Assembly (NCBI GenBank): GCA_964493735.1
Contig: CAZBPN010000004.1
Coordinates: forward strand, 4,109 to 68,108
Source: an uncultured Rickettsiales bacterium
GTDB lineage: Bacteria > Myxococcota_A > UBA796 > UBA9615 > CAYRNR01
Direction: 5' to 3'
DNA: 64,000 nt
In this document: positions 409-28,601 of the stretch, in pieces
Position numbering within the stretch: position 1 is the stretch's first letter
How the letters are laid out: every line of letters starts with the position of its first letter
Notes under the pieces: model-generated
Told to the model about the DNA's origin: nothing
Databases searched by the model: none
The model's input: only the letters and a program-made list of their open reading frames with translations
Translations under genes and position numbers: made by a program

Positions 409-1635
409 TCAGGCGAACAGCGGCAGCTGGACCGGTCCGGTCGGAACGTCGTCCATGACCGTCCTGCCGCCGCGCGAGGCGGCCTGGCGCCACTCGTCGT
501 CGACGATCGCGTCGAACGAGGGGCCGCTCGCTTCCCGCTCCAGCCGCCGGACCCGGCGCTCGATGCGGCGCAGGGCCTCGACCTTGTCGGAGCGGCCGAT
601 GCGGGCCTGGTCGACCGCTCCGCGGAGAGCGTGGAGGGTGCGGTCGTACACCTTCAGGGGGACGGGGAAGGGGTGGCCGTCCTTGCCCCCGTGGGCGAAG
701 GCGTAGCGGGCGGGGTCGTCGAAGCGGCTCGGCGCGCCGAAGGCCACCTCGGCGACCAGCGCGATGGCCTGCATCGTCCGCGGCCCGAGGCCGGGGGTCA
801 GCAGCAGGTCGTCGAACTGCCCGGCGCCGGCCTCCCGGGCGGTCGCCAGCACGCCGTGGAGCCGTCGCAGGAAGACGTCACTGGCCCGGACCTCGTGGTG
901 GGCCGGCATCTGGAGGTGGCGCTGCCCCGCGATCCGGCGGACCTCGTCGACCGCCACGTCCGGCGCGCCCGTGGCGAGCTCCAGCGAGGCCGTCCGGGCG
1001 TGGGCCGAGCGGCGGTCGGTGAGGTTGACGATGGTCCCCTGGGGCGGCCCGACCACCGCGTCGTGGGGTTCCTCGACGAACGAGGACACGGACTCGGACC
1101 GCCAGTGGTAGCGGCGAGCCTGGCGGGCGTCGCCGTTCATGCCCTGCTGGACCACGACCCAGTCGCCGCCGTCGGTCAGCACGAAGGAGTGGAGGTAGAG
1201 CTGGAAGCCGTCCTGGAGGGCCACGCCGTCGACCTTGGCCACGAGCTTGCTCGTGCGGACCAGCGCCTCGCCGTCCAGCCCGAGCCGGTCCCCCAGCGCC
1301 AGCAGCTCCTCCGGGGTCCGGCGGGAGTGCCGCCCCCGCCCGCCACACACGTGGAGCCCCAGCTCGCCTGCCCGGGGCGTCAGCCCGCGCTTGAGGGCCC
1401 CCATCACCGAGGTGGTGATCCCCGACGAGTGCCAGTCCATGCCCATGGCGGCCCCGAAGGCCTGGAACCAGAACGGATCGGCCAGCCGCCGCAGGAAACC
1501 CCGTCTCCCCTCGGTGACGACCACCACCTCGGCGATGGCTGCCCCCAGTTCGGCCATCCGGCTCGCGAGCCACCGGGGCACACGACCGTTGTGCAGGGGG
1601 AGGGATGCGGTTCCGGCGCGGCTGGACATGAACAA
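409..1635 (-). CDS. conserved hypothetical protein, possibly DUF763-like
   Basis: 408-aa ORF with protein-like composition (HSSGITTSVMGALKRGL, HVCGGRGRHSRRTPEEL). The family assignment is from memory only. Confidence 0.5.
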   Translation of the reverse strand: MFMSSRAGTASLPLHNGRVPRWLASRMAELGAAIAEVVVVTEGRRGFLRRLADPFWFQAFGAAMGMDWHSSGITTSVMGALKRGLTPRAGELGLHVCGGRGRHSRRTPEELLALGDRLGLDGEALVRTSKLVAKVDGVALQDGFQLYLHSFVLTDGGDWVVVQQGMNGDARQARRYHWRSESVSSFVEEPHDAVVGPPQGTIVNLTDRRSAHARTASLELATGAPDVAVDEVRRIAGQRHLQMPAHHEVRASDVFLRRLHGVLATAREAGAGQFDDLLLTPGLGPRTMQAIALVAEVAFGAPSRFDDPARYAFAHGGKDGHPFPVPLKVYDRTLHALRGAVDQARIGRSDKVEALRRIERRVRRLEREASGPSFDAIVDDEWRQAASRGGRTVMDDVPTGPVQLPLFA

Positions 1636-1693
1636 TTGTTCAGTACCGCGTCGGGCGGGTCATGTCAAGGTCGGAGCATGGTCGTCCGCGGCG

Positions 1694-3097
1694 TCAGCAG
1701 CCGTCGTTGGCCCCGCCCGGCGTGCCCAGATCGCCGTCGCCGTAGCTCGAGCTGGCCTCGCACCAGTGGGAGCCGTCGTCGTTGGCGGTGTGGGTCAGGT
1801 AGGCCGGGGCCAGGCTCATCGACGCCCCGGTGGGATCGGGGAAGGTGGCGCCGTCGTCCCAGGCGATCCGGTCGATCTGAAGACCGCCGCAGCTGAGGAT
1901 CAGCTCGTCGTCGCCGTTGGTCAGGTTCAGTCCGCCGCCGTACTCGTAGTCCAGCGAGACACCGCCGTTGAGCCAGGTGTCGGCCTCGGTGCCCAGGACC
2001 ACGTAGCCACCGCCCCACACGACCAGCGGGCCCGCGATGGTGTGGTCCAGCCCGTCGTCGTCGGACAGCTGGCAGCCCTCCAGGTCCAGGGAACTGCCGG
2101 TGGTGTTGTGGAGCTCGAACCACTCCCCGTCGTTGTCGGAGACCGCAGCCGGGTTCTGCATCACCTCGGTGACGATGACACCGCCCACCGGGACACCGCC
2201 CCCTCCGCCGCAGTCGTCGTTCGCGGCGCCCGGCGTGCCCAGGTCGCCGTCGCCGTAGCTGGAGCTGGCCTCGCACCAGTGAGAGCCGTCGTCGTTGGCG
2301 CCCGCGTCCAGGGATCCGGGATCCAGGCTCATCGATGCGCCGTCCGGATCCGGGAAGTCCGGCCCGCCGTCGTACTCCACGGCGTCCACGGTCAGCCCCG
2401 CGCAGTCCAGGTAGATCTCGTCGTCGGAGTTGGAGAGGCTGACGGCGCCACCGTACTCGTAGTCGACCACGGCGCCGCCGTTGAGCAGCTGGTTCCCCAG
2501 CGCGCCGAGGACCAGGTAGTCGCCGGGACCCACCAGCAGGCTCGTCCCCGGGCTGATCACGTGGGAGTCCGCCCCGGCGTCGGAGACCACCCAGCCCATC
2601 AGGTCCACGAAGCCGCCGCTGGCGTTGTAGATCTCGAACCACTCCCCCTCGCCGTCGGCGACGGCCAAGGGGTTGGGCATGATCTCGCTGATCACCACGT
2701 CGCCGAACGAGACGAAGTCCTCGTCCGCGATCCCGTCGCAGTCCTGGTCGACGCCGTCGTCGATCTCGGCGGCTCCGGGGTGCACGCCCGGGTCCCCGTC
2801 GTCGCAGTCGTCCGGCTCCTCGTACCCGTCCCCATCGGCGTCGCCCGGCGCCGTGTCGTCGTCCCCGGTGTCGTCGTCCCCGGTGTCGTCGTCCCCGGTG
2901 TCGTCATCCCCGGTGTCGTCATCCCCGGTGTCGTCGTCGCCGGTGTCGTCGTCGCCGGTATCGTCGTCGCTGTTGTCGTCGTCGTCATCGTCGCCGTTGT
3001 CGTCGTCGTCCTGCGGCGGGGGCGGCGGCGGACAGCCGGCCCACAGCAGCGCGGCGAGCAGCAGGAGGGAGAGGCGCCACGGGATCCGGGCGTTCAT
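1694..3097 (-). CDS. secreted lipoprotein with an acidic (DDDTG)n linker and two tandem lamin-tail (LTD) domains
   Basis: Signal peptide plus lipobox LWAGC. Eight DDDTG repeats follow the lipobox. Two copies of the LTD signature are present: SEIMPNP..GEWFEIYN and TEVMQNP..GEWFELHN. A GAGGAGG ribosome-binding site lies upstream of the ATG. Confidence 0.75.
   Translation of the reverse strand: MNARIPWRLSLLLLAALLWAGCPPPPPPQDDDDNGDDDDDDNSDDDTGDDDTGDDDTGDDDTGDDDTGDDDTGDDDTGDDDTAPGDADGDGYEEPDDCDDGDPGVHPGAAEIDDGVDQDCDGIADEDFVSFGDVVISEIMPNPLAVADGEGEWFEIYNASGGFVDLMGWVVSDAGADSHVISPGTSLLVGPGDYLVLGALGNQLLNGGAVVDYEYGGAVSLSNSDDEIYLDCAGLTVDAVEYDGGPDFPDPDGASMSLDPGSLDAGANDDGSHWCEASSSYGDGDLGTPGAANDDCGGGGGVPVGGVIVTEVMQNPAAVSDNDGEWFELHNTTGSSLDLEGCQLSDDDGLDHTIAGPLVVWGGGYVVLGTEADTWLNGGVSLDYEYGGGLNLTNGDDELILSCGGLQIDRIAWDDGATFPDPTGASMSLAPAYLTHTANDDGSHWCEASSSYGDGDLGTPGGANDGC
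2853..2966. repeat. about 7.5 tandem copies of the 15-bp unit ccggtgtcgtcgtcc, which encodes (DDDTG)n on the minus strand
   Basis: Direct reading of lines 2821-3000 shows near-identical 15-mers in tandem. Confidence 0.8.
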
Positions 3098-3133
3098 GTC
3101 GGGACCTCCTCGTCCGGCGGGGGCGGCGCCGGA

Positions 3134-4072
3134 TCAGGGGACCAGTTTTGCCCCGAAGACCGAGTCGGATCCACTGTTGACCGTCGAATCCAGGATCACC
3201 TCGACCGTGCCCTCCAGGCAGTAGTGGCCGTGGTAGTCCCACACGTAGTCCCCGGAGGCATCCACCTGGTCGATGACCACGGCGTTGCCGTCCACGAGGA
3301 ACAGGGCGCCGTCGGGGTTGCGGTTCTCGGTGTGCCGGCCGCCCACGTACGCGTCGTACCAGCCGCGAGGCACGTTGGAGAAGGTGAACGTCGCGGTGCC
3401 GGTGCGCGATCCGTCCGGGGCGTACAGGGCGTCGCACTCCTCGTGCTCGTCCCCCGACGCCGTGTAGGCATAGGGCCGGCAGGTCAGCACCCAGTTGTGC
3501 CGCTCCGTGTAGGCGGCCACGTCGTAGTCGATCTCCATCTCGTAGGGCGGGTTGCCGGGATCCGTCTCGCAGGAGTCGTCGTCGTCGTCGTCTCCCCCGG
3601 GGAACTCGCACTCGCACCAGTCGGACTGGTGGCCGTTGACGTCGCCACAGCTCAGCACGTTCTGTGGCTCCTTGATGCAGCCCGGCTCACCGCCGTAGCG
3701 CCGGACGCAGACCATGCCGGCGGCCGCGCAGTAGGCCCCGCAGCCGGCGCCGTCGGTGAACACGCCGTTGCAGTAGTCGTCCCCGGTCTCACAGACCTCC
3801 CACGCCGGGTTGGTCTGGGAGATCAGCGAGCAGTCAGCCGGGGTGGTGTCGTCGTCCCCGGTGTCGTCGTCGGCCGTGTCGTCGTCTCCGGTGTCGTCGT
3901 CCCCGGTGTCGTCGTCCCCGGTGTCGTCGTCGGCGACGTCGTCGTCGTCCCCCGTCAGGTCGTCGTCGTCGCCCACGTCGTCGTCGCCGGCCACGTCGTC
4001 GTCGTGTACCGACGTACAGCTCAGCGCCCAGGGAGACAGTGCGAGCAACAAGGCCAGGATCGTGACACGCAT
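3134..4072 (-). CDS. secreted Cys-rich lipoprotein with an acidic (DDDTG)n linker; function unknown
   Basis: Signal peptide with lipobox LSC, then a DDDTG repeat, then a Cys-rich module and a C-terminal domain of unknown function. A GGAGGGG ribosome-binding site is upstream. Confidence 0.65.
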   Translation of the reverse strand: MRVTILALLLALSPWALSCTSVHDDDVAGDDDVGDDDDLTGDDDDVADDDTGDDDTGDDDTGDDDTADDDTGDDDTTPADCSLISQTNPAWEVCETGDDYCNGVFTDGAGCGAYCAAAGMVCVRRYGGEPGCIKEPQNVLSCGDVNGHQSDWCECEFPGGDDDDDDSCETDPGNPPYEMEIDYDVAAYTERHNWVLTCRPYAYTASGDEHEECDALYAPDGSRTGTATFTFSNVPRGWYDAYVGGRHTENRNPDGALFLVDGNAVVIDQVDASGDYVWDYHGHYCLEGTVEVILDSTVNSGSDSVFGAKLVP

Positions 4073-4139
4073 GGGGCCCCTCCGTCCGTCGGCAGGATAC
4101 CAGAGGGGGCGGCGTACCCCGCCGCTGGCGGATCGGGGA

Positions 4140-5084
4140 TCAGCCGAGGCGGGTCAGGAGCTCGGCGTGGGGTTCGTCTCCCAGGTCGCGGAGGCGAACG
4201 CGCTGGGCGGCCAAGAGGGCCGCCAGGTTGATCGCGGGGCGGTCGTCGCGGGCGGCGTCGGTGGCGTCGAGCAGGACGATGCGCAGGCGCGGCACGGTGG
4301 TCAGGGCGCGGGCCGCAGCCTCCTGCTCGGCGAGCATCGCCTCGTGGCCGGGGTGGGAGCCCACGTTGCCCCGCCCATCGGTGATCAGGACCAGCAACCG
4401 CCGCCGTCCATCATCCCGCCGTCCGTCCGCGGCCAGGGTGTCCAGGGATCGCTGCAGCGCGGACGCCAGTGGCGTCGTCCCGCCGCAGGGTAGACCGGCG
4501 ACGGCGCGCCGCACCAGCTCGGCCTGGGCGGTGGGCCGCAGCAGCAGGGGGGCATCACGGCCGGCGAACGCGATCAGCGCGACCTGGTCCCGCTGCAGGT
4601 AGGCGTCTCGCAGCAGGCCGACGGCGGCCCGCCGCGCCAGGGCGATCCGCTCGCCGCCCATGGAGCCGGAGGCGTCCACCGTGAACAGGACGAGGCGGCC
4701 CGGCCGGATGCGTCGGCGATGAGCGCGGAGGTCGGTCCGATCCAGACGCAGGGGCAGCTCCGGGGCACCGCTGGCCCCGAGTCGGGGCGCCGCCCGCGCC
4801 AGGGTCTGCGTCCAGGCCAGGTCCCGGGAACCGTCGGCCGGCCGGCTGCCCCAGGGGTGTCCCCGGTGGGGCCGCCCCGACGGCACCGACCGGCCCCGGC
4901 GCCGGCCGGGGTTGGCGGTCCGTTCCCGGTCGCCCGACAAGACCTGCTCCTCCCCGGGGAGGGGGGCAAGCAGGGGGGCGTCGGCGTTCGCCGGGGCGAA
5001 CAGCCCGAGCCCGAACAGCCCTTCTGAAGGGGATGCCGGCGCCTTGCCGTCCCGTGCCGCGGCGGTCGCGACGTCGCCCTGCAA
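4140..5084 (-). CDS. VWA (von Willebrand factor A) domain protein resembling the C-terminal half of the ChlD/BchD subunit. The start codon is uncertain: TTG at 5084 or GTG at 4886, or the protein is made as a fusion by a minus-one frameshift from the upstream ChlI-like gene
   Basis: The C-terminal 250 aa carry the MIDAS motif (VLFTVDASGSMGG) and match the ChlD-type VWA domain (LITDGRGNV). This frame has no in-frame ATG upstream of the VWA domain. The same frame continues upstream through a Pro-rich linker (RRPPPLTPGAPDREPPPPQ) to the ChlI-like stop codon. Confidence 0.5.
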   Translation of the reverse strand: MQGDVATAAARDGKAPASPSEGLFGLGLFAPANADAPLLAPLPGEEQVLSGDRERTANPGRRRGRSVPSGRPHRGHPWGSRPADGSRDLAWTQTLARAAPRLGASGAPELPLRLDRTDLRAHRRRIRPGRLVLFTVDASGSMGGERIALARRAAVGLLRDAYLQRDQVALIAFAGRDAPLLLRPTAQAELVRRAVAGLPCGGTTPLASALQRSLDTLAADGRRDDGRRRLLVLITDGRGNVGSHPGHEAMLAEQEAAARALTTVPRLRIVLLDATDAARDDRPAINLAALLAAQRVRLRDLGDEPHAELLTRLG

Positions 5085-5179
5085 CCGGCGGCCGTGGTTG
5101 CGGATGGCGTCCTGTGGGGGCGGAGGCTCTCGGTCGGGCGCGCCGGGGGTCAGCGGCGGGGGCCGCCTCGCCGCGGCGC

Positions 5180-6226
5180 TCAGGCTTTTTTTGCAGGAGC
5201 TTCCAGCATCTCCCGGGCCCGCCCGCGCAGCTCGTCGGGAGTCAGGCTCGCCTCCTCGAACGGGCGGCGACGGAGGCGGTGGGCGTACACCAGCGGCGCG
5301 GCCCGCTCCAGGTCGTCGGCGACCAGCTCGTCGCGGCCGGCCAGGGCGGCGAGGGCCATCGCCCCCTTGATCAGCAGCAGGTCGGCCCGGTGGCCGTCCA
5401 CCTCCAGGGAGAGGGAGAGCTCGGCCGCGGCCTCGAGCCAGCGGCGGGCGGGCCGGACCGCGGGCAGCCGCGCCCGCGCCGCGGCGATGGCCGTGGCCTC
5501 CTCGTTCTCCCGGTCGGCCCAGCGGGCGATGAAGCCCGCCGGATCCGCCTCGAAGGCCAGGTTGCGCTCGACGATCTCGGCCCGGCGGTCGGCGTCGGGC
5601 AGGTGGGCGATCTCCGCGCACAGGCCGAAACGGTCCTGCAGCTGGGGCCGCAGTTCCCCCTCCTCCGGGTTCATGGTGCCCACCAGCAGGAACTCGGCCG
5701 GGTGGCACACGGAGATCCCCTCCCGGGAGACCACGTTGACCCCGGACGCGGCCGCGTCCAGGAGCAGGTCCACCAGGGGGTCGTCGAGCAGGTTGACCTC
5801 GTCCACGTACAGGACCCCGCCGTTGACCCGGGCCAGCAACCCGGGCTCGAAGCGGCGGCGGCCGGACTGGAGCGCGTGCTCGATGTCCAGACTGCCCAGC
5901 AGGCGGTCCTCGGTGATGCCGAGGGGCAGGGTCTCGAAGGGCGCCCGGCGGCCCACGGGATCCGGGTCACCCTCCAGGGCCCGGCAGTCGTCGCACCAGT
6001 CCGCCGGGCGATCGGTCGCGCAACCGAACGCGCAGCCCCCGTTCACCCGCCCCACGGGGAGCAGTCGCGCCACTCCCCGGGCCAGGGTCGACTTGGCCGT
6101 GCCCTTCTCGCCGCGGATCAGCAGCCCGCCCAGGGCGGGATTGACCGCCAGCATCCGCAGCCCGAGCTTGACCTCGTCGTGTCCGACCACTGCGGACAGG
6201 GGCATCACGCGTTCCTCGGGCCGCAT
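5180..6226 (-). CDS. AAA+ ATPase of the magnesium-chelatase subunit I (ChlI/BchI) family, with a 4-Cys insert
   Basis: Walker A motif GEKGTAKST and the ChlI-typical blocks LLARVNGGVLYVDEVNLL and LVGTMNPEEGELRPQLQDRFGL are present. There is a Cys-rich insert, CAFGCATDRPADWCDDC. Confidence 0.85.
   Translation of the reverse strand: MRPEERVMPLSAVVGHDEVKLGLRMLAVNPALGGLLIRGEKGTAKSTLARGVARLLPVGRVNGGCAFGCATDRPADWCDDCRALEGDPDPVGRRAPFETLPLGITEDRLLGSLDIEHALQSGRRRFEPGLLARVNGGVLYVDEVNLLDDPLVDLLLDAAASGVNVVSREGISVCHPAEFLLVGTMNPEEGELRPQLQDRFGLCAEIAHLPDADRRAEIVERNLAFEADPAGFIARWADRENEEATAIAAARARLPAVRPARRWLEAAAELSLSLEVDGHRADLLLIKGAMALAALAGRDELVADDLERAAPLVYAHRLRRRPFEEASLTPDELRGRAREMLEAPAKKA
5186..5192 (-). other. 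A7 homopolymer (A_AAA_AAA followed by G) sitting two codons before the ChlI-like stop; candidate minus-one frameshift site or homopolymer sequencing error
   Basis: On the minus strand the zero frame reads GCA AAA AAA GCC TGA (A K K A stop). The minus-one frame reads TGC AAA AAA AGC CTG (C K K S L) and continues into the Pro-rich linker and VWA domain. Confidence 0.4.
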
Positions 6227-6248
6227 CGGGTCTCCCTCGCCGCTGGAT

Positions 6249-8096
6249 TCAGAAGCCGAAACCGAGCGCCCGTCGGCGCACCATCTGCTGGATGTAGTCG
6301 TCCACCTCGGCGTCCCGGTTGCGCCACCCGGCGGCCCGCACTCCCCGCAACGCCATGTCGATGGTGGTGTAGCGGACCTCCTCGAGCGCCCGCTCCGCCT
6401 TGACCTTGATCGGGCTGCCGCCGGGCCACTCGGTCTTGTAGGGCACCGGCGAGCCGTTCACCACGGCCTTGTCATAGGTGTAGCGCTTGAACGGCTCCTC
6501 CTTGGGGTGGCGATTGATCGGGTCGACCAGCTGGCGGGCCTTCAGGGCAGTCGCCAGCCCGTCGAGGGCGCCGGAGACCGCCTTCATCACCGGGGTCGGC
6601 TCGCCGATCAGCTGGCGGTAGCGCTCGTCGGCCTTGCGCACCCGTCGGCGGACCACGCCGTTGGGGGCGAAGCGGTCCATGCCCTTGAGCAGCAGCCAGA
6701 AGGTGGCGCTCTGCCGCTTGAAGTGCAGCGCCCGGTGACGCCGCAGCACCGGGTTGTCCGAGCGCCGGCAGTACTCGTAGCCGTTCATCAGCACGTCCAG
6801 GCGGCGCAGCAGCGACGGCCCCCAGGTGCGGTAGAGCAGGTCGTAGCCGTACTCGGTCAGGTTGAGGGTCTCGTGGGGCGCCAGCGACAGGTTCTTCTGG
6901 GCGCCGCTCCAGAAGTGCACGTCCTCCCAGGGCACGTCGTCGATCCGCCCCTCCTCCTTCAGCCGGTCCCACAGGGCCGTGCCCGGGAAGGGCGAGAGGC
7001 GGGTCAGCTGCTGGTAGGTGGGCATCAGCGACACGAAGTAGTTCAGGTCCTCGTGGATGTTGGTGTGGTCGTGGAAGTCCCAGCCGCAGATCCAGGCGCC
7101 CACGGTGCGGATCCCCATCGAGTGCAGCCGCGAGAAGCACTCGGCGGCGTCGATCTCGTCCCGCTTGTCGTAGCCGTGGTCGCCGGCGAACTTGGACTCC
7201 ACGCCGATGAAGACCGTGCCCAGCCCCAGCTCGGCGATGGCGTCCCAGCCGTACTTCTTCGCGAACTTGCCGATGTGGTCGATGGAGCCGAACCCGAACC
7301 AGTCGACGGCCTCCATCATCTCCGGGTGCCCCATCCAGTAGGGCCGCATCTCGTCCAGGTAGGCCGGCTGGCGGAAGTGGTCCTCCTCGACCACGAAGAC
7401 CTGGCGCACGTCCGGGAAGTGCTGGAAGTACAGGTGCATGTGCTCCACCAGCTCCTTGGGCGACAGCAGCTCGATGCGCTTGCGGTCGAACAGGGCGGTG
7501 GTCGAGCAGAAGTCGCAGCCGCCGATGCAGCCCAGCCCCGACACCAGGAAGCCGACCGCGCCCTTGGGATAGCGGCTGATGTAGGGCACGGTCCCGCCGG
7601 CCTTGGGCATCAGCGCCTGGCGGATCGGCCGGTCGGTGGCCTCGCCCAGCAGGCTGCGCATGAAGCGCACGCCCTCGCCGCTGACCACCCCGTCCACGTA
7701 CTGGCTCTGCTCCGCCTCGTCGTAGCTGGCCTGGAACGCCTGGCCGGCGTAGGAGCCCAGCAGGATCTTGGTGGCCGGCGATCGCTGGCGCACGTAGCGG
7801 CACATCTCCAGCACGCGGTCCAGGTGGACCGGGTAGGCGCTGATGCCCACCACCGGGTACCCCTTGTCGATCTCGGCGGTGAAGTCCTCCCAGCGGGGGT
7901 ACTCCAGCAGCACGGTCGGCGTGTCCACGTTCTGCGCCAGGATGTGGTTGGCGAAGCAGTGGGTGTGGGAGATCAACGAGAAGATGTCGTCCCCCTTGGT
8001 GAACCGCTGCCCGGTGGCGTCGGTCAACGAGTCGTTGGCCGGCAGGGTCGGGTAGGGGTAGGTCGGGGTGGTCAGCAGGATGCGGTTCTCCAGCAT
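6249..8096 (-). CDS. B12-binding-domain radical SAM enzyme (class B radical SAM methylase-like)
   Basis: The CX3CX2C cluster motif is present as GCIGGCDFCS, within a 615-aa protein that has an N-terminal Rossmann-like B12-binding region. The subfamily (BchE, HpnJ, HpnR or other) cannot be resolved by eye. Confidence 0.8.
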   Translation of the reverse strand: MLENRILLTTPTYPYPTLPANDSLTDATGQRFTKGDDIFSLISHTHCFANHILAQNVDTPTVLLEYPRWEDFTAEIDKGYPVVGISAYPVHLDRVLEMCRYVRQRSPATKILLGSYAGQAFQASYDEAEQSQYVDGVVSGEGVRFMRSLLGEATDRPIRQALMPKAGGTVPYISRYPKGAVGFLVSGLGCIGGCDFCSTTALFDRKRIELLSPKELVEHMHLYFQHFPDVRQVFVVEEDHFRQPAYLDEMRPYWMGHPEMMEAVDWFGFGSIDHIGKFAKKYGWDAIAELGLGTVFIGVESKFAGDHGYDKRDEIDAAECFSRLHSMGIRTVGAWICGWDFHDHTNIHEDLNYFVSLMPTYQQLTRLSPFPGTALWDRLKEEGRIDDVPWEDVHFWSGAQKNLSLAPHETLNLTEYGYDLLYRTWGPSLLRRLDVLMNGYEYCRRSDNPVLRRHRALHFKRQSATFWLLLKGMDRFAPNGVVRRRVRKADERYRQLIGEPTPVMKAVSGALDGLATALKARQLVDPINRHPKEEPFKRYTYDKAVVNGSPVPYKTEWPGGSPIKVKAERALEEVRYTTIDMALRGVRAAGWRNRDAEVDDYIQQMVRRRALGFGF

Positions 8097-8135
8097 CTCT
8101 CGGCTCCTATCGCCGCGCGTCGGGGCGGCGGTTGA

Positions 8136-9044
8136 TCACGAGACCACGGCGAGCGGCGCCGGCGCGTCGGCGGCGGCGTGCTCGACCAGGAATCGACCCA
8201 TGTGGGAGGCGAACTCGGCGGGCCGTTCCTCCTGCCAGAAGTGGCCGCAGAACGGGATCAGCTCGAAGCCGACGGTGCCGGGGATCTCCTCGGCCAGCTT
8301 CGCCCCCCACGAGGGTGAGATGTAGCGGTCCTCGGCCCCCCAGAGCACCAGGGTAGGCCGGTCGAAGCGACGCAGCCCCTCCACCGCGGCCAGGGAGTAG
8401 CGCGCGTGGCCGGCACGGAGGAAGCGGACGAACCGCGCCCGCTCGGCGGTCGTGCCGTGCAAGGGGCGCAGGTACTCGCGGATCGCCTCGTCCGAGAACG
8501 CCGCAGGATCGTGGACGCCCCGTCGGAACGCGGACCAGCGCGAGCGTGTCTCCCGCCACAGGAAGGCGCCGCTCCGGACGAGCAACGAGGGCAGCAGCGG
8601 CACCTGCCAGAGGGCCTGGAGGCGCGCGATCTCGGGCACGGGCCAGTTGTCGTAGGCCACGCAGTTGGTCAGGACCAGGGCGGTCACCCGCTCGGGCCAG
8701 CGGGCCGCCAGCAGCTGGGCCGCCGCTCCCCCCTGGTCGTGGGCCACCACGGCGAAGCGCTCGTGACCCAGGGTGGTCATGAACTCCAGCAGCATCTCGG
8801 CCTGGGCGTCCATGTGCAGGGGGGTGCGCTCCGGATCCACGTCCGTGTCCCCGAGCCCCATCAGGTCCGGCGCGTAGCCGTGGACGTCGTTGCCCAGCAT
8901 CCGCAGCACGTGCCGCCACAGCCATCCCGACGTGGGGATCCCATGGACGAACAGAACGGGCGGTCGCGTGCGCGAGCCCGCCTCCAGGTAGGCGATCTCT
9001 CCATACGACGTGTGGAGGCGCTGCTTCGGCGCCGAGGGGGTCAT
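8136..9044 (-). CDS. alpha/beta hydrolase with an Asp nucleophile, of the epoxide hydrolase or haloalkane dehalogenase type
   Basis: The nucleophile elbow reads VVAHDQGG (HD-x-GG). The ATG at 9044 overlaps the upstream MerR stop codon (ATGA). The 720-aa track ORF is an N-terminally over-extended version of this gene. Confidence 0.8.
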   Translation of the reverse strand: MTPSAPKQRLHTSYGEIAYLEAGSRTRPPVLFVHGIPTSGWLWRHVLRMLGNDVHGYAPDLMGLGDTDVDPERTPLHMDAQAEMLLEFMTTLGHERFAVVAHDQGGAAAQLLAARWPERVTALVLTNCVAYDNWPVPEIARLQALWQVPLLPSLLVRSGAFLWRETRSRWSAFRRGVHDPAAFSDEAIREYLRPLHGTTAERARFVRFLRAGHARYSLAAVEGLRRFDRPTLVLWGAEDRYISPSWGAKLAEEIPGTVGFELIPFCGHFWQEERPAEFASHMGRFLVEHAAADAPAPLAVVS

Positions 9045-10546
9045 CCGGTCCCCCTCCCCGGGCCGTCCAGGAACGCCCGCTCGGCCAGCGCACTGGCCGG
9101 ATCCAGCTGGCAGATCAGCGAGCGGAGATCGGCCCGGTGCGCCCCGGCCGCCTCGTCCTCGTCCCCGCGCCCCAGCGCCTCGAACAGCAGCCAGGCGGCG
9201 TTGATCTGGTGCCGCTCGGCGAGCCCGGGCAGGCCGGGGGCCGAGGGCGGGTCGTCCTGCAACCGCGCCAGCTGCGCCCGGAGCGCCTGGAGGCCCCGCT
9301 CCCGCTCCCGGAACGCCTCGGGCAGGGCGGTGAGCAGCCACGCGGCCAGGTACCCCACGTGGGACGCGTCGGCCTGGGGATCCCAGCGGTCGAGGGTCGA
9401 GTCGGCCAGGGCCCGGATGGTCGCGGCGTCGGATGCACCCCCCTTGTTCCCCTCGGTGCTCCGGGTGTAGAGCGCCAGCGCCAGGTAGACCGACGCCTCC
9501 GCGGGGGCGCGATCCCGGTCGACCTGGTCCTGGAGCAACTCGATCCCGGGGCCGGTCTCGCCGGAGAGCACGAGCGCGATGCCGTGCAGCGCCAGCAGCT
9601 CCGCATCCCCCGGGACCGCCTCCAGCCCCTGCTCCAGGGTGAACGCCGCCTCGCGGTAGCTGCCCGCGTGCATGTGGAGCTGGGCGGCCTGGCGCCACTC
9701 GGCGGGATCGCCGTGGCGGTTCGCCAGTAGCTGGCGGTGCTCGTCCACCGCCGACTGCAGATCGAAGCGCGCGCGGAAGGCCGCGCTGGGCCGGTAGACG
9801 ACCGTGGCCAGCACCCCCGCGGGCGCCGCGCCCAGCTCGAGGCGCCCGTGCAGCGCCCGCTGCAGCAGGGACTGCAGCACGTTGTGGACGAAGCTCGACG
9901 TGATCTCCCGGCGCACGAAGGCCTGGCCCAGCAGCCGCTCCGGCGTGCCCGCCTGTTCCCAGTCCAGCTCGATGAACTCCCGGTGCTCCAGCTCGAAGCC
10001 GACCCGCACGTAGGAGGCCACCGTGCGGAACGAGGCGAAGGGGATGCCGAGCTGGGTGCCCTGGTCGCACAGGGCGGCCACGTGGGCGTCGTAGGAGGTG
10101 AAGCGCGGCGGTGTCGTGCCCTCCAGCGGGCGGATCACCTGCTGGCCGATCAGCTCCTCGAGGCGGCTCACGTCGACGCCGGCCTCCTCGGCCAGCTCGT
10201 CGGCGCTCAGGGTCCGGCCGAGCCCCAGGTCCGAGGACTCCGCGAATCGACTCAGCCGCTGGGCCAGCGATTCGATGTGGAACAGGGGCTGCAGCCACTC
10301 GGGATCGAACTCGTAGAGCTCGAAGATGCGGCGCACCGTGTCCAGGGGCAGGTGGAACTCGTCCCGCAGCTTGCGCACCAGGTGCAGCAGCCGCAGGTGC
10401 TGCTCGCCGTAGCGAGCGCGGGTCTCGCAGGGCGGGAGGATCCCCTGGCGCAGGTAGTGGTGGATGAGCTCCTTGGACACGCCGGTGCGTTCCACCAGCT
10501 CGCTGATCCGGAGGCCTTCGGGACGGACGGGGGTAGAGGTGCTCAC
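9041..10546 (-). CDS. MerR-family transcriptional regulator with a large C-terminal TPR-like domain
   Basis: The N-terminal MerR helix-turn-helix is LRISELVERTGVSKELIHHYLRQGIL. It is followed by about 350 aa that are helical and repeat-like. Confidence 0.8.
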   Translation of the reverse strand: MSTSTPVRPEGLRISELVERTGVSKELIHHYLRQGILPPCETRARYGEQHLRLLHLVRKLRDEFHLPLDTVRRIFELYEFDPEWLQPLFHIESLAQRLSRFAESSDLGLGRTLSADELAEEAGVDVSRLEELIGQQVIRPLEGTTPPRFTSYDAHVAALCDQGTQLGIPFASFRTVASYVRVGFELEHREFIELDWEQAGTPERLLGQAFVRREITSSFVHNVLQSLLQRALHGRLELGAAPAGVLATVVYRPSAAFRARFDLQSAVDEHRQLLANRHGDPAEWRQAAQLHMHAGSYREAAFTLEQGLEAVPGDAELLALHGIALVLSGETGPGIELLQDQVDRDRAPAEASVYLALALYTRSTEGNKGGASDAATIRALADSTLDRWDPQADASHVGYLAAWLLTALPEAFRERERGLQALRAQLARLQDDPPSAPGLPGLAERHQINAAWLLFEALGRGDEDEAAGAHRADLRSLICQLDPASALAERAFLDGPGRGTG

Positions 10547-10565
10547 GTCAACTCCTGATTTAATC

Positions 10566-10710
10566 TACTACACGAAATCGTGTAACCAATGCAACCCTAA
10601 TCGTCAGGGGAGTGATGAAACGGGCTGGGAGTGGGGAAAACGTCCAGGTTTCCGATGGTTGCGAATTGTTCATCATCGCGTTCATCGTTTTCGTGTAACG
10701 AGTTTACACT
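10566..10710. promoter_or_regulatory. divergent promoter or operator region between the MerR regulator and the secreted peptidase genes, with lower GC and repeated TCGTGTAAC motifs
   Basis: An inverted repeat tacacgaAAtcgtgta lies at about 10569-10584. A second cgtgtaac copy lies within tgtaacgagtttaca at about 10690-10706. The region is markedly AT-richer than the flanking sequence. Confidence 0.3.
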
Positions 10711-10759
10711 AGGTTTCGACGCGGGGTGCAGACGATCTGCCCCTGGAGCGGGAGGAACG

Positions 10760-12004
10760 ATGAGGAACGTCGCCCGAACCTTCCTGAGCATCCTGGTGAT
10801 GGGGGCCCTGGTGGGCTGCTTTGCCGAGGCCCCGAAGGATCCGCCGGGGCCCCAGGCCGAGGACGACATGTCCGCCCGCAACGGCGGCCCGTCGGTGCGT
10901 CTGATGCACCCCCAGAACGGGCAGGCCGTGCCCAACCCGGTCTCCTTCGCCATCGACACCACCGCCGGGATCCACAAGGTCGTCTTGGACGCGGACGGCT
11001 GGGTCCTCGACGAGTGGGATCCCCACCACTACACGATCGTGGATTACACCTTCCAGGGCGTGAACACGCCGCGGGTGATCACCCTCACCGGGTTCGACGC
11101 CCACGGCACCCCGAAGGACACCGACAGCGTCGTTATCACGGTCTACAACGATGACGGCGGTGGCGGCTCCACCCCCGGGGGCACCGACGTCCGCATCACC
11201 GCCCCGGGCGACGGGGCCGACGTCCACAACCCCGTCACCTTCGACACCAGCTCCAACGGGATCCACGCGCTCAAGCTGTTCGCGGACGGCTACGACATCA
11301 GCGACTTCTGGAAGCCCGAGTGGGGCAGCACCCATACCTACGAGTTCTCCCAGGGCGGCACCCGGGAGATCGAGCTGGTCGGCTACGACAGCGGCTGGAA
11401 CCGGGTCGCCAAGGACGTCATCACCATCCACGTCGACGGGGCCAGCAACCCGGGCAACGACAACAACAACAACAACGGCAACAACAACAACGGGGGCAAC
11501 AACAACGGCTCGCTCAACGTCCCGTACTACTACCAGTACAGCAACGCGTACGAGCCGAGCGCCACCTGCGGGCTGACGTCGGCGGCCATGCTGCTGAGCT
11601 ACATGAAGGGCACCAGCGTCGACCCCGACACCCTCTACCTGAACTACGGCAAGGCCCAGGGGCAGTCGCCGGGTTCCCTCGCGCAGCTGTACAGCTGGGA
11701 GGGCCTGTACGCGGACTCCACCTACGGCGGCACCCGTTCCATGATCAAGAACCAGCTGGACGCTGGCCGGCCCGTGCTGGTGCACACCTTCCTCACCGGC
11801 GCGGGCCACATCATCTGCATCGTCGGCTACGACGGTAGCGGCTGGATCGTCAACGATCCGGCCGGCGACTGGTACCAGTGCTACGGCTGCGGCGCCTACG
11901 GCGACCACGTGCACTATCCCTACGGCGGCGGCGCCGACGATGCCTTCAGCCACGACGGGGACATCTGGATGTCCTCGGCGGACACGTCCTCGTTCGGCTT
12001 CTAG
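10760..12004 (+). CDS. secreted lipoprotein with two tandem N-terminal repeat modules of about 75 aa, a poly-Asn linker and a C39-like (papain-fold) cysteine peptidase domain
   Basis: The ATG at 10760 has a GGAGG ribosome-binding site and starts a signal peptide with lipobox LVGC. The two repeat modules read PNPVSFAIDTTAGIHKVVLDADGWVLDEW and HNPVTFDTSSNGIHALKLFADGYDISDFW. They are followed by NNNNNGNNNNGGNNNG. The catalytic Cys (SATCGLTSAAML) and His (GHIICIVGYD) are present. Confidence 0.7.
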   Translation: MRNVARTFLSILVMGALVGCFAEAPKDPPGPQAEDDMSARNGGPSVRLMHPQNGQAVPNPVSFAIDTTAGIHKVVLDADGWVLDEWDPHHYTIVDYTFQGVNTPRVITLTGFDAHGTPKDTDSVVITVYNDDGGGGSTPGGTDVRITAPGDGADVHNPVTFDTSSNGIHALKLFADGYDISDFWKPEWGSTHTYEFSQGGTREIELVGYDSGWNRVAKDVITIHVDGASNPGNDNNNNNGNNNNGGNNNGSLNVPYYYQYSNAYEPSATCGLTSAAMLLSYMKGTSVDPDTLYLNYGKAQGQSPGSLAQLYSWEGLYADSTYGGTRSMIKNQLDAGRPVLVHTFLTGAGHIICIVGYDGSGWIVNDPAGDWYQCYGCGAYGDHVHYPYGGGADDAFSHDGDIWMSSADTSSFGF

Positions 12005-15094: not shown

Positions 15095-16354
15095 TCAGCC
15101 CTGGAGCCGACGCCGGCGCAGGCCGATCAAGATCAGCGGGGCGGCGAGCCCCACCCGGGCCCACGGACGCGCCGCGTGGGGCTCGGAACCGCAGGAGCAA
15201 CCGTCCTGCCCTCCGCCGGGCGGACCGGGCGGATCGCCGCCCGTGTCGTCATCCCCCGTCGCGTCGTCGTCGTCATCCCCGGCCGTCGCGTCGTCGTCAT
15301 CATCGTCGCCTGTGGCGTCGTCGTCCCCGGTGGCGTCGTCGTCGTCATCGTCGCCGGTGGCGTCGTCATCGTCCCCCGGCGGCGAGTAGCTGAACCGCAT
15401 CGCGTCGTACCCGATCTTGCGGCCGAGGGTCTCGTAGTCCTCACCGGTGTTGTCGCCCAGGTGGACGTACTGCTCGGACGAGCCGTCGAAGCGGAACGTG
15501 CCCAGGGTCTGCCAGCCCTTGTCCTCGGACTGGTTCACCGTGGCGGGGCTGACACCGTCGGCGTGGTGGATCTGGTAGGTGGCGTGGTGGGAATCGGCCT
15601 CGGTGTCGGGGATGTGGGCGTCCACCCGGTAGTCGCCGGCCACGGTCACCTCGAAGAGCCACTCCCCGGTGGTCTCCTCGACCGGCTCGTCGGTGGCGTA
15701 GGTGTAGTAGTGGTGTCCGTCGTGGCCCTCGGCCACGTCCCACCACCACTGGCTGACCCGCCGGAAGCAGCTGCCGTCGCTCTCGCTGACCACCGTCTCG
15801 TCGCCGTCCAGGGTGGCCTCGCACCCGCAGCCGGATCCGCAGTTGTCCGACGTCACCGAGGTCGGGTAGAGGGGGTCGCCCACGTCCAGGAACTCCGCGT
15901 GGATCGACTGGCACCACCAGGAGTTGCACAGCTCCTGGATCTGGTAGTGCAGGTGGGCTCCACAGACCCAGCCGGTCAGCCCCACCCGCCCGACCACGTC
16001 GCCAGCACAGACGTCGTCCCCCACCTGGAGGGAGGACGACCAGGTGTCCAGGTGCAGATAGAGTGCCGCGCTCCCGTCGCCGTGGTCGACGACCACGTAG
16101 TTGGCGTCGTTGGCGTAGGCCGCGTCGCAGCCGCCCGTGGTGGAGTCCATCCGGATCTCGTCGACCACCCCCGGCGCCGACGCCCAGACCTCCTCGCCGA
16201 CCCCCATCCCGAAGTCCCAGGCCCAGGCCCCCATGCCCGTGTGACTGCCGCCGTTGTGGTCCTGGGTGATCTGGAAGGTCGCGCCACAGCTCCACGGCAG
16301 CTCCAGCGGAGGGGTGGAGAGCACCACCAGGGTGAGGAGCGCGGGGAGCTGCAT
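15095..16354 (-). CDS. secreted M23 metallopeptidase with a D-rich (DDDATG)n region and a MYXO-CTERM sorting signal
   Basis: M23 motifs present include HTGMGAWAWDF and HGDGSAALYLHL. A C-terminal D-rich repeat is followed by GCSCGS, a hydrophobic stretch (LAAPLILIGL) and RRRRLQG, which matches the MYXO-CTERM sorting signal. Confidence 0.75.
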   Translation of the reverse strand: MQLPALLTLVVLSTPPLELPWSCGATFQITQDHNGGSHTGMGAWAWDFGMGVGEEVWASAPGVVDEIRMDSTTGGCDAAYANDANYVVVDHGDGSAALYLHLDTWSSSLQVGDDVCAGDVVGRVGLTGWVCGAHLHYQIQELCNSWWCQSIHAEFLDVGDPLYPTSVTSDNCGSGCGCEATLDGDETVVSESDGSCFRRVSQWWWDVAEGHDGHHYYTYATDEPVEETTGEWLFEVTVAGDYRVDAHIPDTEADSHHATYQIHHADGVSPATVNQSEDKGWQTLGTFRFDGSSEQYVHLGDNTGEDYETLGRKIGYDAMRFSYSPPGDDDDATGDDDDDDATGDDDATGDDDDDDATAGDDDDDATGDDDTGGDPPGPPGGGQDGCSCGSEPHAARPWARVGLAAPLILIGLRRRRLQG

Positions 16355-26458: not shown

Positions 26459-28123
26459 CTAGCTCACCACCAGGTGGTCGAGGCCCTTCTCCCGGAGGTA
26501 TTCGGGGTAGAGCTGGAAGGCGGGCTTGAGGATCGGCAGCAGCTTGACCGCCTTCTGGACGGCGCCCCGGGAGGTGACCTGGCGGCGGGTCAACGCGGAG
26601 ACCACGTTGGCCTTGCCCAGCCAGAACGCGTGGGCGAAGTCGGCGTCCATGGTCATCTCGACCTCGGGGGTGCGGGCGCTGTCGCCCAGGTCGTAGTCCA
26701 CCTCGGCGCCGGTGGCGTCGATGGTGATGACCGCATCCGGGTTGCGGTAGTTGAACCGGATCAGCAGGTTGGAGTCGGCGAACTTGGGCCCGATCTCCGG
26801 GTGGTCCTTCAGCGACAGCAGGAATCCGCCGAGCACGTCGTACAGGTCGTCCGTGTCCTTGTAGGCCCCCCGGACCTCCCGGGCGCGGGCCCGCTGGGCG
26901 GCGCGCTTGAGCCGGGCCTTGCTGACCGGCAAGGGGAAGGCCGGCTGCTTGTAGGCCCGCCGGACGATCTTCTCGACCGCGTCGGGTTTGACCGGGCAGG
27001 GGTTGTACAGCATCGAGCCGTCGACCATCGCGGTCTCGACCACCTGGTCCAGCCGGGCGAGCCCGTCGCCGACGCCCGCCTGCTCCAGGTTGGCCGGCAG
27101 CGCCTTGAGGTAGCTGAGCTTGCGGCTGAGCACCCGCACCTTGAGGATGCCCATCCGCGCGGTGAGCGCCGGCGTGGGCATCTGGGGCACACCCAGGGCC
27201 AGGGCCACGTCCGCCAGCCGCTCCGTGCGGGCGTCCAGGTTGTGCTCCATGCCGAAGGGCAGGATCAGGGCGTTGGCCTCGCCGTGGGCGATCCCGTACA
27301 CGCCGCCCAGGGAGTGGGCGATCCCGTGGACGATGCCCACCATCGAGTGGGAGAAGGCGATCCCCGCCAGGCAGCTGGCGGTCAGCATCTGGCCGCGGGC
27401 CTCGATGTCGTCGGGGTGGGCGGCGGCGACCAGGATGTTGCGCGCGATCATCTGGATCGCCTGGATCGCCATCGCGTCCGACGCGGGGGACCACTCGGTG
27501 TCCAGGTAGGCCTCGATGGCGTGGGTCAGGGCGTCCATGCCGGTGGCACCGGTGATCCGCGGGGGCATGGTCGCGGTGATCTCCGGGTCCAGCACCGCCA
27601 GGTCGGGCTGCAGGTAGTCCTCGGTGAACGGCAGCTTGACGTCGTTGGCCTTGTCCGCGATGACCGCCACCCGGGTGACCTCGGAGCCCGTGCCGGCGGT
27701 GGTCGGCACCACGACCAGCGGGAACAGGGGCTTGGTCACCAGCTGGGCGCCCTGGTGGTCGGCCACCCGGCCCCCCTTCTTCATCAGGATGTTGGCCACC
27801 TTGGCGGTGTCGATCACGCTGCCACCGCCGACGGCGATGATCAGGTTGGCCTTGGCCGCCAGCCCCGCGTCCGCGCAGGCCTCGACGGTCGTGATCTCCG
27901 AGTTGGGGGGCACGTCGTCGAAGGTGGCGACCACCTTGACCTTCGACCCCGCCAGACCCTTCTGGATCATCTCGGGCAGGCCCAGTCCGGCGATCACCCG
28001 GTCGGTCACCAGCAGCGCCCTGCGGCGGCCGAATCGGCCGAACTCGTCGGCCAGCTTGGCGGCCAGGCCGGCGCCGTAGACCACCTTGGTGGGCAGCTGG
28101 AAGCTGAAATACTCCGGTAGCAT
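26459..28123 (-). CDS. iron-containing (group III) alcohol dehydrogenase fused to a C-terminal SCP2 sterol-carrier domain
   Basis: Fe-ADH motifs are GGGSVIDTAK, the His cluster HGIAHSLGG and GIAHGEANA. A C-terminal 110-aa SCP2-like domain follows (FNYRNPDAVITID...FWLGKANVVSALTRRQV). Confidence 0.85.
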   Translation of the reverse strand: MLPEYFSFQLPTKVVYGAGLAAKLADEFGRFGRRRALLVTDRVIAGLGLPEMIQKGLAGSKVKVVATFDDVPPNSEITTVEACADAGLAAKANLIIAVGGGSVIDTAKVANILMKKGGRVADHQGAQLVTKPLFPLVVVPTTAGTGSEVTRVAVIADKANDVKLPFTEDYLQPDLAVLDPEITATMPPRITGATGMDALTHAIEAYLDTEWSPASDAMAIQAIQMIARNILVAAAHPDDIEARGQMLTASCLAGIAFSHSMVGIVHGIAHSLGGVYGIAHGEANALILPFGMEHNLDARTERLADVALALGVPQMPTPALTARMGILKVRVLSRKLSYLKALPANLEQAGVGDGLARLDQVVETAMVDGSMLYNPCPVKPDAVEKIVRRAYKQPAFPLPVSKARLKRAAQRARAREVRGAYKDTDDLYDVLGGFLLSLKDHPEIGPKFADSNLLIRFNYRNPDAVITIDATGAEVDYDLGDSARTPEVEMTMDADFAHAFWLGKANVVSALTRRQVTSRGAVQKAVKLLPILKPAFQLYPEYLREKGLDHLVVS

Positions 28124-28304
28124 CGCGCTCTCCCCTCGCCGCCGGTTCGGCGACCCGGGGATTCTAGCCCCGCCGCCTCGCCCGCGCGAGGATCCCCGTG
28201 GGAACGGGCTCTCCGGAAAAAAACCACAAAAACCCTAGACGTTCGGAGGGGTGGTTACTAGAGCAATTTCCGTAGCAGGAAGCACACGAAAAGAGGGCCA
28301 CAGG

Positions 28305-28601
28305 ATGCTGAACGAGGGGTTCGTGAGCGGAACGATCCGGGGAAGCGCCAAGGCGGAGATGGTTCGCCAGCTCGACCAGCTCGGCGAGGCGAGCGCGGAC
28401 CGCTGGGAGCGCGCCGTGTTCACCGCCCTCACCGGTCGCGTCCGCGAGGACGTGGACCTGGACATCGAAGAGAACCGCGCAGGCTACTGCGCGTGGATCC
28501 GGAGCTTCGACAGCCTGACGGACGAGCTCGTGGTCGACGACCACGTGTCCGTGCGGCAGGTCGATCGCGGGCGGGCCCGCAGGGCGTACGCGCCCCGCTG
28601 A
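28305..28601 (+). CDS. small hypothetical protein
   Basis: The ATG has an AAGAGGG ribosome-binding site. Third-position GC is high. There is no recognisable domain. Confidence 0.4.
   Translation: MLNEGFVSGTIRGSAKAEMVRQLDQLGEASADRWERAVFTALTGRVREDVDLDIEENRAGYCAWIRSFDSLTDELVVDDHVSVRQVDRGRARRAYAPR

Follow-up and report, generated by a model that had tools for sequence, protein, structure and literature searches.

We describe here a chelatase-like locus in a stretch of 64,000 nt (~71% GC), called the window below, from contig CAZBPN010000004.1 of an uncultured Rickettsiales bacterium, which the GTDB taxonomy places in Myxococcota_A. On the minus strand of the window, an open reading frame (ORF) for a ChlI/BchI-type AAA+ ATPase ends shortly after a run of seven A, and the -1 frame continues from that run through a proline-rich linker into a VWA domain of the kind found at the C-terminus of ChlD. 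The gene is the last of a small operon, the features of which are collected in Table 1. The window's own copy of the locus is labeled WIN, and related loci in other genomes carry L-numbers.

Table 1. Features of the recoded locus and its operon, in window coordinates.
Feature	Position	Strand	Remarks
MerR-family HTH + TPR regulator	9041-10546	minus	First gene of cluster; same position in L001, L004 and L005
Alpha/beta-hydrolase	8136-9050	minus	Abhydrolase_1, E 2e-29; BchO model 57 bits, cutoff 173
Cobalamin-type (class B) radical SAM-like protein, 615 aa	6249-8096	minus	CxxxCxxC; directly upstream of AAA+ ORF
ChlI/BchI-type AAA+ ORF, 348 aa	5180-6226	minus	Ends GCA AAA AAA GCC TGA
Slippery heptamer A_AAA_AAA (plus-strand T7)	5186-5192	minus	Zero-frame phase; proposed -1 site
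Spacer GCC UGA, 6 nt	5180-5185	minus	Holds zero-frame stop 5180-5182
GC-rich interrupted stem-loop, ~15 bp, minimum-energy	5140-5179	minus	Starts 6 nt after run; candidate frameshift stimulator
-1-frame continuation, 348 codons + stop	4140-5186	minus	Proline-rich linker, conserved motif, VWA/MIDAS
Linker motif GLFGLGLF	4998-5021	minus, -1 frame	55 codons after slip site
VWA domain core	4374-4691 (approx.)	minus	Pfam VWA_2, E 1.2e-12; MIDAS DASGSM, GGTTP, TDGRGN

The AAA+ ORF matches AAA_lid_2, Mg_chelatase and TIGR02030 in Pfam and NCBIfam. The match to TIGR02030 (BchI-ChlI) is at 357 bits and E 9e-107, without reaching the cutoff of 467, and the BchI structure 1g8p is matched at E 5e-82. Walker A, Walker B, sensor 1, the arginine finger and sensor 2 are all intact in a motif alignment, and a Shine-Dalgarno sequence, GAGGGAGA, is found upstream of the ATG. 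The predicted product of standard decoding is probably a small I-type subunit. Between Walker A and the remaining AAA+ core lies an insertion with four cysteines in the spacing C-x3-C-x8-C-x2-C (5984-6034, minus strand; GGCAFGCATDRPADWCDDC). The insertion is kept in L097 (RGCRLGCIATRPADWCDDC) and may bind metal.

Read in the -1 frame, the junction becomes TGC AAA AAA AGC CTG, and the frame then stays open until a stop at 4140-4142. The linker in this frame, RRPPPLTPGAPDREPPPPQ, leads into the VWA domain, in which the MIDAS residues DxSxS, T and D are all intact by motif alignment. The VWA part is matched by the C-terminal structure of BchD, 2x31, at E 3e-18, and it aligns to positions 403-640 of TIGR02442 and 358-554 of TIGR02031. 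The GC content at third codon positions (GC3) in the AAA+ body is 0.96 in frame 0 versus 0.48, and in the VWA part it peaks at 0.90 in frame -1. The -1 frame contains no ATG ahead of the VWA domain; the only canonical starts there are TTG codons at 5084 and 4940, of which the gene callers chose the first. The linker motif belongs to a family pattern, G-[LFI]-[LF]-x-x-G-L-[WF], located 37-103 codons past the slip site across relatives, and it is found in most relatives that share the two-frame layout as well as in the in-frame protein of L097. The remaining linker is variable in this clade and rich in Pro, Arg and Asp, and the hydrophobic motif stands out in it as conserved. It may be a docking element.

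Joining 6226-5186 to 4140-5186 at the run produces a conceptual fusion of 695 aa (..APAKK SLSAAARRPPP..). The fusion aligns to the D-type model TIGR02442 (641 positions) in one stretch, residues 9-679 covering profile positions 2-640 at 615 bits; the homology to D-type proteins is collinear across the junction. The natural fusion encoded by L097 scores 618 bits on the same model. The fusion is below the curated cutoffs of TIGR02442 (615 vs 779), TIGR02031 (370 vs 500) and TIGR02030 (354 vs 467), and with these scores and no large subunit within 64 kb, the locus is not a certified Mg- or Co-chelatase. A first-pass annotation of the window had described the AAA+ gene with its ending, the A7 run just before its stop, the -1 frame open through a proline-rich linker into a VWA/MIDAS domain, and the absence of an ATG before that domain. 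Rereading the sequence and the domain matches bear all of this out. The same annotation expected a ChlD-like fusion of about 690 aa from a slip and an ATPase of 348 aa without one, in agreement with the layout and the D-type model match.

The A7 run begins at codon position 3 of the zero frame, which makes it a heptamer of the X_XXY_YYZ type. Only two A/T runs of at least 6 occur in the 64 kb of the window. The confident genes of the window use AAG for lysine 189 times and AAA 6 times (6/195, 3.1%), and two AAA in a row would be expected at ~0.001 if only Lys-Lys were required. Since A/T runs of this length are so scarce and AAA is so rare for lysine, the run at the junction is more than chance. 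The second run, also A7 (28217-28223, plus strand), lies between the divergent genes 26459-28234 (minus) and 28239-28601 (plus). It was considered as a further recoding site and rejected because it is intergenic; it may be a promoter or untranslated region element. The A7 junction itself is identical in four further assemblies of the window's species from different samples, three of them agreeing without a mismatch across 2,087 nt and the fourth across 1,247 nt.

Relatives were gathered with the 615-aa neighbor protein as a probe, which gave 80 genome loci, and further contigs were then added. Sixteen distinct loci, the window included, form a two-frame set in which one AAA+ ORF is followed by a VWA frame, at ~45-85% amino acid identity. 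A slippery run is present in 16 of 16: A7 in four, A8 in one, A9 in two, A10 in eight and G_GGA_AAA in one (L022). The frame test covered 14 loci, every one of which has its VWA part in frame -1; L004 (10-N assembly gap) and L031 (contig end) were left out of it. For L015, only the junction was used; the start of its AAA+ ORF is not cleanly set, and the frame is open far upstream. The zero-frame stop follows 1-15 codons past the run, and the X_XXY_YYZ phase holds for each of the four A7 runs as well as for the heptamer of L022. The loci are 68-73% GC, and in most of them, the slippery run is the sole A/T run of at least 6 within 8-14 kb. Nine junctions end in TGA, and the third codon position just before it is A or T in 3/9, more than a GC3 of ~0.9 predicts. 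All of the VWA part's closest relatives have been called as short genes standing alone, within an operon of like order. A metagenome scan with the linker/VWA protein returned one locus only, L090, which is distant and uninformative.

In four members of the two-frame set (L005, L010, L015 and L099), the stretch from the run to the linker motif lacks any ATG, GTG or TTG, so the motif is readable there only by way of the AAA+ ORF. Outside the set are relatives in which the VWA part is joined to an AAA+ module without any change of frame. L097 has an A10 run (3737-3746) at the homologous site with AAA+ and VWA in one frame, making a 687-aa ORF (gene 2702-4765), and both of its shifted frames stop within 2-6 codons. 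Compared to the A9-type layout, it has one extra A. Either L097 is a dnaX-like swapped arrangement that yields the same two products with the default and the alternative exchanged, or it contains a one-base assembly error, given that it is one A from the A9-type layout and that a single contig passes over the run. The more distant L027, L033 and L057 have a separate chlI and a full chlD with AAA+ and VWA in frame, and no A-run.

The stem-loop after the run in the window folds at -27.5 kcal/mol, with z = -2.0 over 45 nt and -0.95 over 60 nt. The first-pass annotation had pointed to a 6-bp GCGGCG/CGCCGC hairpin about 8 nt 3' of the run and called for a fold of the 60 nt downstream. A hairpin is indeed present, and the 6-bp pairing is an alternative register within the larger stem-loop; its start is 6 nt from the run and not 8, and the fold of 60 nt does find structure, if only at the z value just given. 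In L008, the closest relative, there is a clean 9-bp stem at the equivalent position (z = -3.2 to -3.6). The downstream structure of L099 is very stable, yet not significant. The hairpin segment aligns gap-free in WIN and L008 only, and it also encodes conserved protein. The hairpin by itself is weak evidence. Upstream of the run, there is a weak GGAAG at 7 nt in the window, GGGAG in L008 and AGGAG in L004, and no Shine-Dalgarno-like element is evident in the junction sequences of L099 or most A10 loci. An Rfam scan of 3500-11000 returned nothing relevant and no cobalamin riboswitch.

The run at the end of the ChlI-like gene very probably lets the cell make a short ATPase and an ATPase-VWA fusion from one gene, and from its sequence and distribution we consider the junction a real, conserved and very probably functional feature. 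We lean, with some reservation, to the view that this is one recoded gene of the fs-chlD (frameshifted chlD) type, in which a ribosomal -1 slip on A_AAA_AAA would produce both an I-type ATPase and a D-type fusion. A programmed slip giving both subunits from one locus was the central proposal of the first-pass annotation, and it draws support from the conserved run and frame among orthologous loci (a comparison that had been suggested there), the missing starts, the fused and split relatives and the match to TIGR02442. Most ribosomes would read GCA AAA AAA GCC, then stop at the UGA and release the 348-aa I-type ATPase. In a minority, the two tRNA-Lys on the heptamer would slip back one nucleotide, probably aided by the GC-rich stem-loop 6 nt downstream, and these ribosomes would read the -1 frame through the proline-rich linker into the VWA/MIDAS domain. 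The AAA+ module of the resulting 695-aa D-type subunit would be identical to that of the short product. In E. coli reporters of Mg-chelatase frameshift genes, frameshifting was 63% with 11 A, 40% with 9 A and 10% with A_AAA_AAA (PMC3711429), and by analogy with the last cassette, we infer a slip efficiency of ~10% for the window. The two products would then assemble as an I/D-type AAA+/VWA motor with I in excess, a situation reminiscent of dnaX tau and gamma and of the I and D rings in Mg-chelatase. With the heptamer in phase, a spacer of 6 nt and the stem-loop, ribosomal -1 slippage is the best-supported mechanism for the window.

The same two proteins would be obtained if RNA polymerase slipped on the run instead, adding a non-templated A, so that a fraction of A8 mRNAs would encode the fusion in one frame. 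Transcriptional slippage that adds A's is known from Thermus dnaX (A9) and several insertion sequence (IS) transposases. A number of observations weigh against giving the slip to the ribosome. Relatives have mostly A9-A10 runs (10 of the 16 two-frame loci), long enough for slippage by RNA polymerase and at or above the ~9 nt where selection against slippage-prone runs shows in many bacteria, a length that is organism-dependent (PMC1088944). On folding, L004, L022 and most A10 relatives show no comparable downstream structure, most A10 loci having none that is significant, and the window's own hairpin is marginal against shuffled or neighboring GC-rich sequence (18th percentile of same-length windows of the locus). 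Efficiency in the chelatase reporter cassettes grew with run length (PMC3711429), and because protein was measured, these assays do not separate ribosome from RNA-polymerase slippage. L097 amounts to an A9-type layout plus exactly one A. A tRNA scan found no tRNA gene, for lysine or otherwise, in the window. On the other side, the window's A7 is under the usual threshold for the polymerase, and L022 cannot use transcriptional slippage because its run is A4 only. Slippage of the polymerase needs no phase, yet the four A7 runs and the G_GGA_AAA of L022 are all in the phase for tandem tRNAs, and in WIN and L008, both A7, the hairpin is at the 6-nt spacing typical of ribosomal frameshifting. Transcriptional slippage is the less likely event at the window's A7, and as the explanation of this locus, we regard it as doubtful. 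In the relatives, the slip may be transcriptional, translational or both. Lineages seem to trade run length against downstream structure, with A7 or another heptamer plus a hairpin on one side and A10 without a hairpin on the other. Ribosome and RNA polymerase may therefore be alternative routes, each taken in certain lineages, to one and the same pair of products.

The remaining explanations do without a slip. The VWA part could be a separate protein, started by termination-reinitiation at an NTGA overlap (CTGA in the window) or at TTG 5084 or 4940; AAA+ and VWA would then act as separate chains, as in the MoxR/VWA pairs, and the -1 offset would be the one common to NTGA overlaps. Gene callers annotate two genes in every assembly, and the TTG at 4940 has GGAGG 8 nt upstream. 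In five relatives (L012, L019, L018, L004 and L008), a canonical start overlaps the AAA+ stop as ATGA, GTGA or TTGA. Upstream of its run, L101 offers an ATG in the -1 frame with GGAGG before it. A clear own start for the VWA gene, in orthologs that lack any slippery motif, was one of the findings that the first-pass annotation had named as telling against a slip. In the matter of starts the relatives are divided, these six having a candidate and the four described above having none before the linker motif. NTGA overlaps give the -1 offset too, and therefore, some lineages may add reinitiation to the frameshift and also make a free VWA protein. Reinitiation, however, leaves unexplained why every two-frame locus conserves a run of AAA, a rare codon. 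CTGA is all that the window, L010, L022 and L099 have, and L001, L005, L015, L020 and L083 close their AAA+ ORFs with a TAG that no start overlaps. The TTG at 5084 lacks a Shine-Dalgarno sequence (-1.7 kcal/mol) and is at codon +34, after 34 codons that are 74% identical to L008; the ratio of synonymous changes over those codons is 7:9 in the -1 frame vs 4:11 and 3:12 in the other frames, a small signal. In the in-frame L097 and the canonical chlD relatives, moreover, the VWA is attached to the AAA+ module. We think it unlikely that two independently started proteins are the whole account. A still more improbable account has no programmed event at all, the frame break being an artifact of sequencing or assembly, a recent mutation that inactivated the gene or DNA-level phase variation at a homopolymer. 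Homopolymers are prone to indels, and L097, with its A10 in frame on one contig, looks like an ON allele or an assembly error. The run length, however, does not differ among 15 independent assemblies, which cover 5 species and of which 4 are of the window's own, and the out-of-frame layout recurs in every testable locus together with intact catalytic and MIDAS motifs and a coding-type GC3 in the VWA frame. The first-pass annotation had kept a homopolymer error or recent pseudogene as its alternative; since the independent assemblies are identical and the two-frame layout is conserved among relatives, we reject sequencing error and pseudogene as effectively excluded.

The operon in which the recoded gene is found has a conserved order: a MerR/TPR regulator, an alpha/beta-hydrolase, the ~615-aa protein and, last, the ChlI-like/VWA gene. 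The 615-aa protein has weak B12-binding and radical-SAM matches in Pfam and NCBIfam, none of which reaches a Pfam gathering score. Its AlphaFold2 (AF2) model (pLDDT 82, pTM 0.87) matches MgmA, CysS and TokK, which are cobalamin-dependent class-B radical SAM methylases, at E 1e-9 to 1e-8. The weak profile matches and the modeled fold suggest a cobalamin-type radical SAM-like protein. Over the 80 probe loci, it is 58-94% identical, in Myxococcota-like metagenome-assembled genomes, Desulfobacterales, SAR324, Schekmanbacteria, Actinomycetota and many Asgard archaea (Promethearchaeota, Hodarchaeota, Hermodarchaeota and Thorarchaeota). Database annotation has no functional name for it, and a literature search gave nothing specific on its family. 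JGI often labels it "haloalkane dehalogenase", a label probably carried over from hydrolase fusions such as P0144 (922 aa), in which a homolog is fused to an alpha/beta-hydrolase. L001 has tandem radical SAM paralogs upstream of its frameshifted gene (1143-3035 and 3050-4894; 630 and 614 aa, ~70% identical to the window's).

A neighboring hydrolase occurs in about one in three of the 80 probe loci and a neighboring ChlI/VWA gene in about one in six, and on account of the latter fraction, the I/D-type motor is a lineage-specific addition to the radical SAM operon. In the photosynthesis gene clusters of purple bacteria, bchI and bchD are accompanied by the gene for a hydrolase, BchO, and the hydrolase that accompanies the I/D gene here may represent an old I/D/O association. 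As the first-pass annotation had noted, there is no ChlH or CobN nearby: none is found in the 64-kb window, which has no ORF longer than 987 aa and whose largest ORFs carry unrelated Pfam domains. Neither is shown within the flanks of related loci, and no separate small-subunit gene is seen within the window. We raise, as a speculation, that the motor is not a tetrapyrrole chelatase and is instead dedicated to the radical SAM enzyme and the hydrolase, serving in cofactor loading, maturation or substrate delivery. Alternatively, a cobaltochelatase module may have come to lie beside a B12-dependent enzyme, and cobN may be encoded at another site of the genome. If the radical SAM enzyme were the client, it would be the first beyond ChlH/CobN for a motor of the ChlI/ChlD class and would explain the published orphan fs-chlD genes. 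The operon link with the radical SAM protein is in any case a new functional lead and a testable handle on chelatase-like motors without ChlH/CobN.

Elsewhere in the window, three minus-strand genes (1694-3097, 3134-4072 and 15095-16354) encode predicted secreted proteins or lipoproteins with long acidic (D/T)GDDD(T/A) repeats, and the first of these also has LTD domains.

For annotation, the consequence is that the public calls show two genes here, one for a "Mg chelatase" of 348 aa and one for a "VWA protein" truncated to 314 aa, with an unsupported TTG as its start, where the actual products are probably 348 and 695 aa. The same correction applies to every relative found. The locus also illustrates the strong retention of a run of rare AAA codons in DNA of ~70% GC.

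Three kinds of known system bear comparison with the locus besides the fs-chlD genes themselves. MoxR-type AAA+ proteins have VWA partners (CbbQ/CbbO, NorQ/NorD and CoxD/CoxE) and are encoded beside the enzyme acted on. They are like the window's pair in having an AAA+ protein and a VWA/MIDAS protein encoded next to the enzyme served, and they are a possible model for the window's motor and its radical SAM enzyme. They differ in being separate genes with their own starts and in belonging to the MoxR clade, whereas the window's AAA+ is ChlI-type and its VWA is reached by a change of frame. The tau/gamma pair of dnaX is a precedent for two AAA+ subunits that share an N-terminus and come from one gene by way of an A-rich slippery site (A_AAA_AAG in E. 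coli). It also has a hairpin a few nt downstream and a GGAG-like element upstream; candidates for the latter are seen at 7-8 nt in L008 and L004 and, as a weak GGAAG, in the window. The polarity of dnaX, with the long form made by standard decoding, is that of L097 in its assembled state. In the window, by contrast, the long form would need the slip and the short form would be the default, and the protein family is another one.

The relationship to the BchI/BchD (ChlI/ChlD) pair of Mg-chelatase, and to the ChlI/ChlD that work with CobN, includes the AAA+ fold and motifs and the D-type order of AAA+, proline-rich linker and VWA with MIDAS, and L027, L033 and L057 carry the canonical two-gene layout in a like operon. 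The window differs in that a single AAA+ module, with its catalytic motifs intact, would serve both products, whereas the AAA+ of ChlD is often degenerate. It also has no ChlH/CobN and no tetrapyrrole genes within its 64 kb.

Finally, the fs-chlD genes resemble the locus in the recoding itself. Antonov et al. (2013) reported a -1 frameshift in a cluster of 23 Mg-chelatase genes from six genera, each publicly annotated as two adjacent ~1-kb genes and with fused homologs elsewhere (PMC3711429). Kuznetsov et al. (2022), citing Antonov 2020, state that fs-chlD yields the small and medium chelatase subunits from one gene (PMC9227772). Orphan fs-chlD genes without ChlH/CobN, of "function unclear", are recorded from Spirochaeta thermophila and Brevefilum fermentans (PMC9227772). 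As in these genes, ORF1 of the window is a ChlI-type AAA+, ORF2 is a ChlD C-terminal VWA in the -1 frame that overlaps or abuts it, and a poly-A slippery run is at the end of ORF1, the window's A_AAA_AAA being one of the three motifs tested (PMC3711429). There are likewise two adjacent public gene calls of ~1 kb and in-frame fused homologs (L097 and the chlD of L027, L033 and L057), and orthologs keep both the slip site and the direction of the shift, here over the 16 loci with a run and the 14 with a testable frame. At the level of sequence, every hallmark of that family is found at this locus. The differences are in the host, an uncultured GC-rich Myxococcota-like bacterium compared with Pseudomonas, Burkholderia, Delftia, Herpetosiphon and Methanococcales; in the fusion's position below the curated cutoffs of all chelatase models; and in the neighborhood, a radical SAM/hydrolase/MerR-TPR operon and not cobN. 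The first-pass annotation had not noted that the phenomenon, which is supported here, is already published for the gene family (PMC3711429, PMC9227772). What is new here is the lineage and the neighboring genes, not a new kind of system, and the fs-chlD recoding family is extended to GC-rich uncultured Myxococcota-like bacteria.

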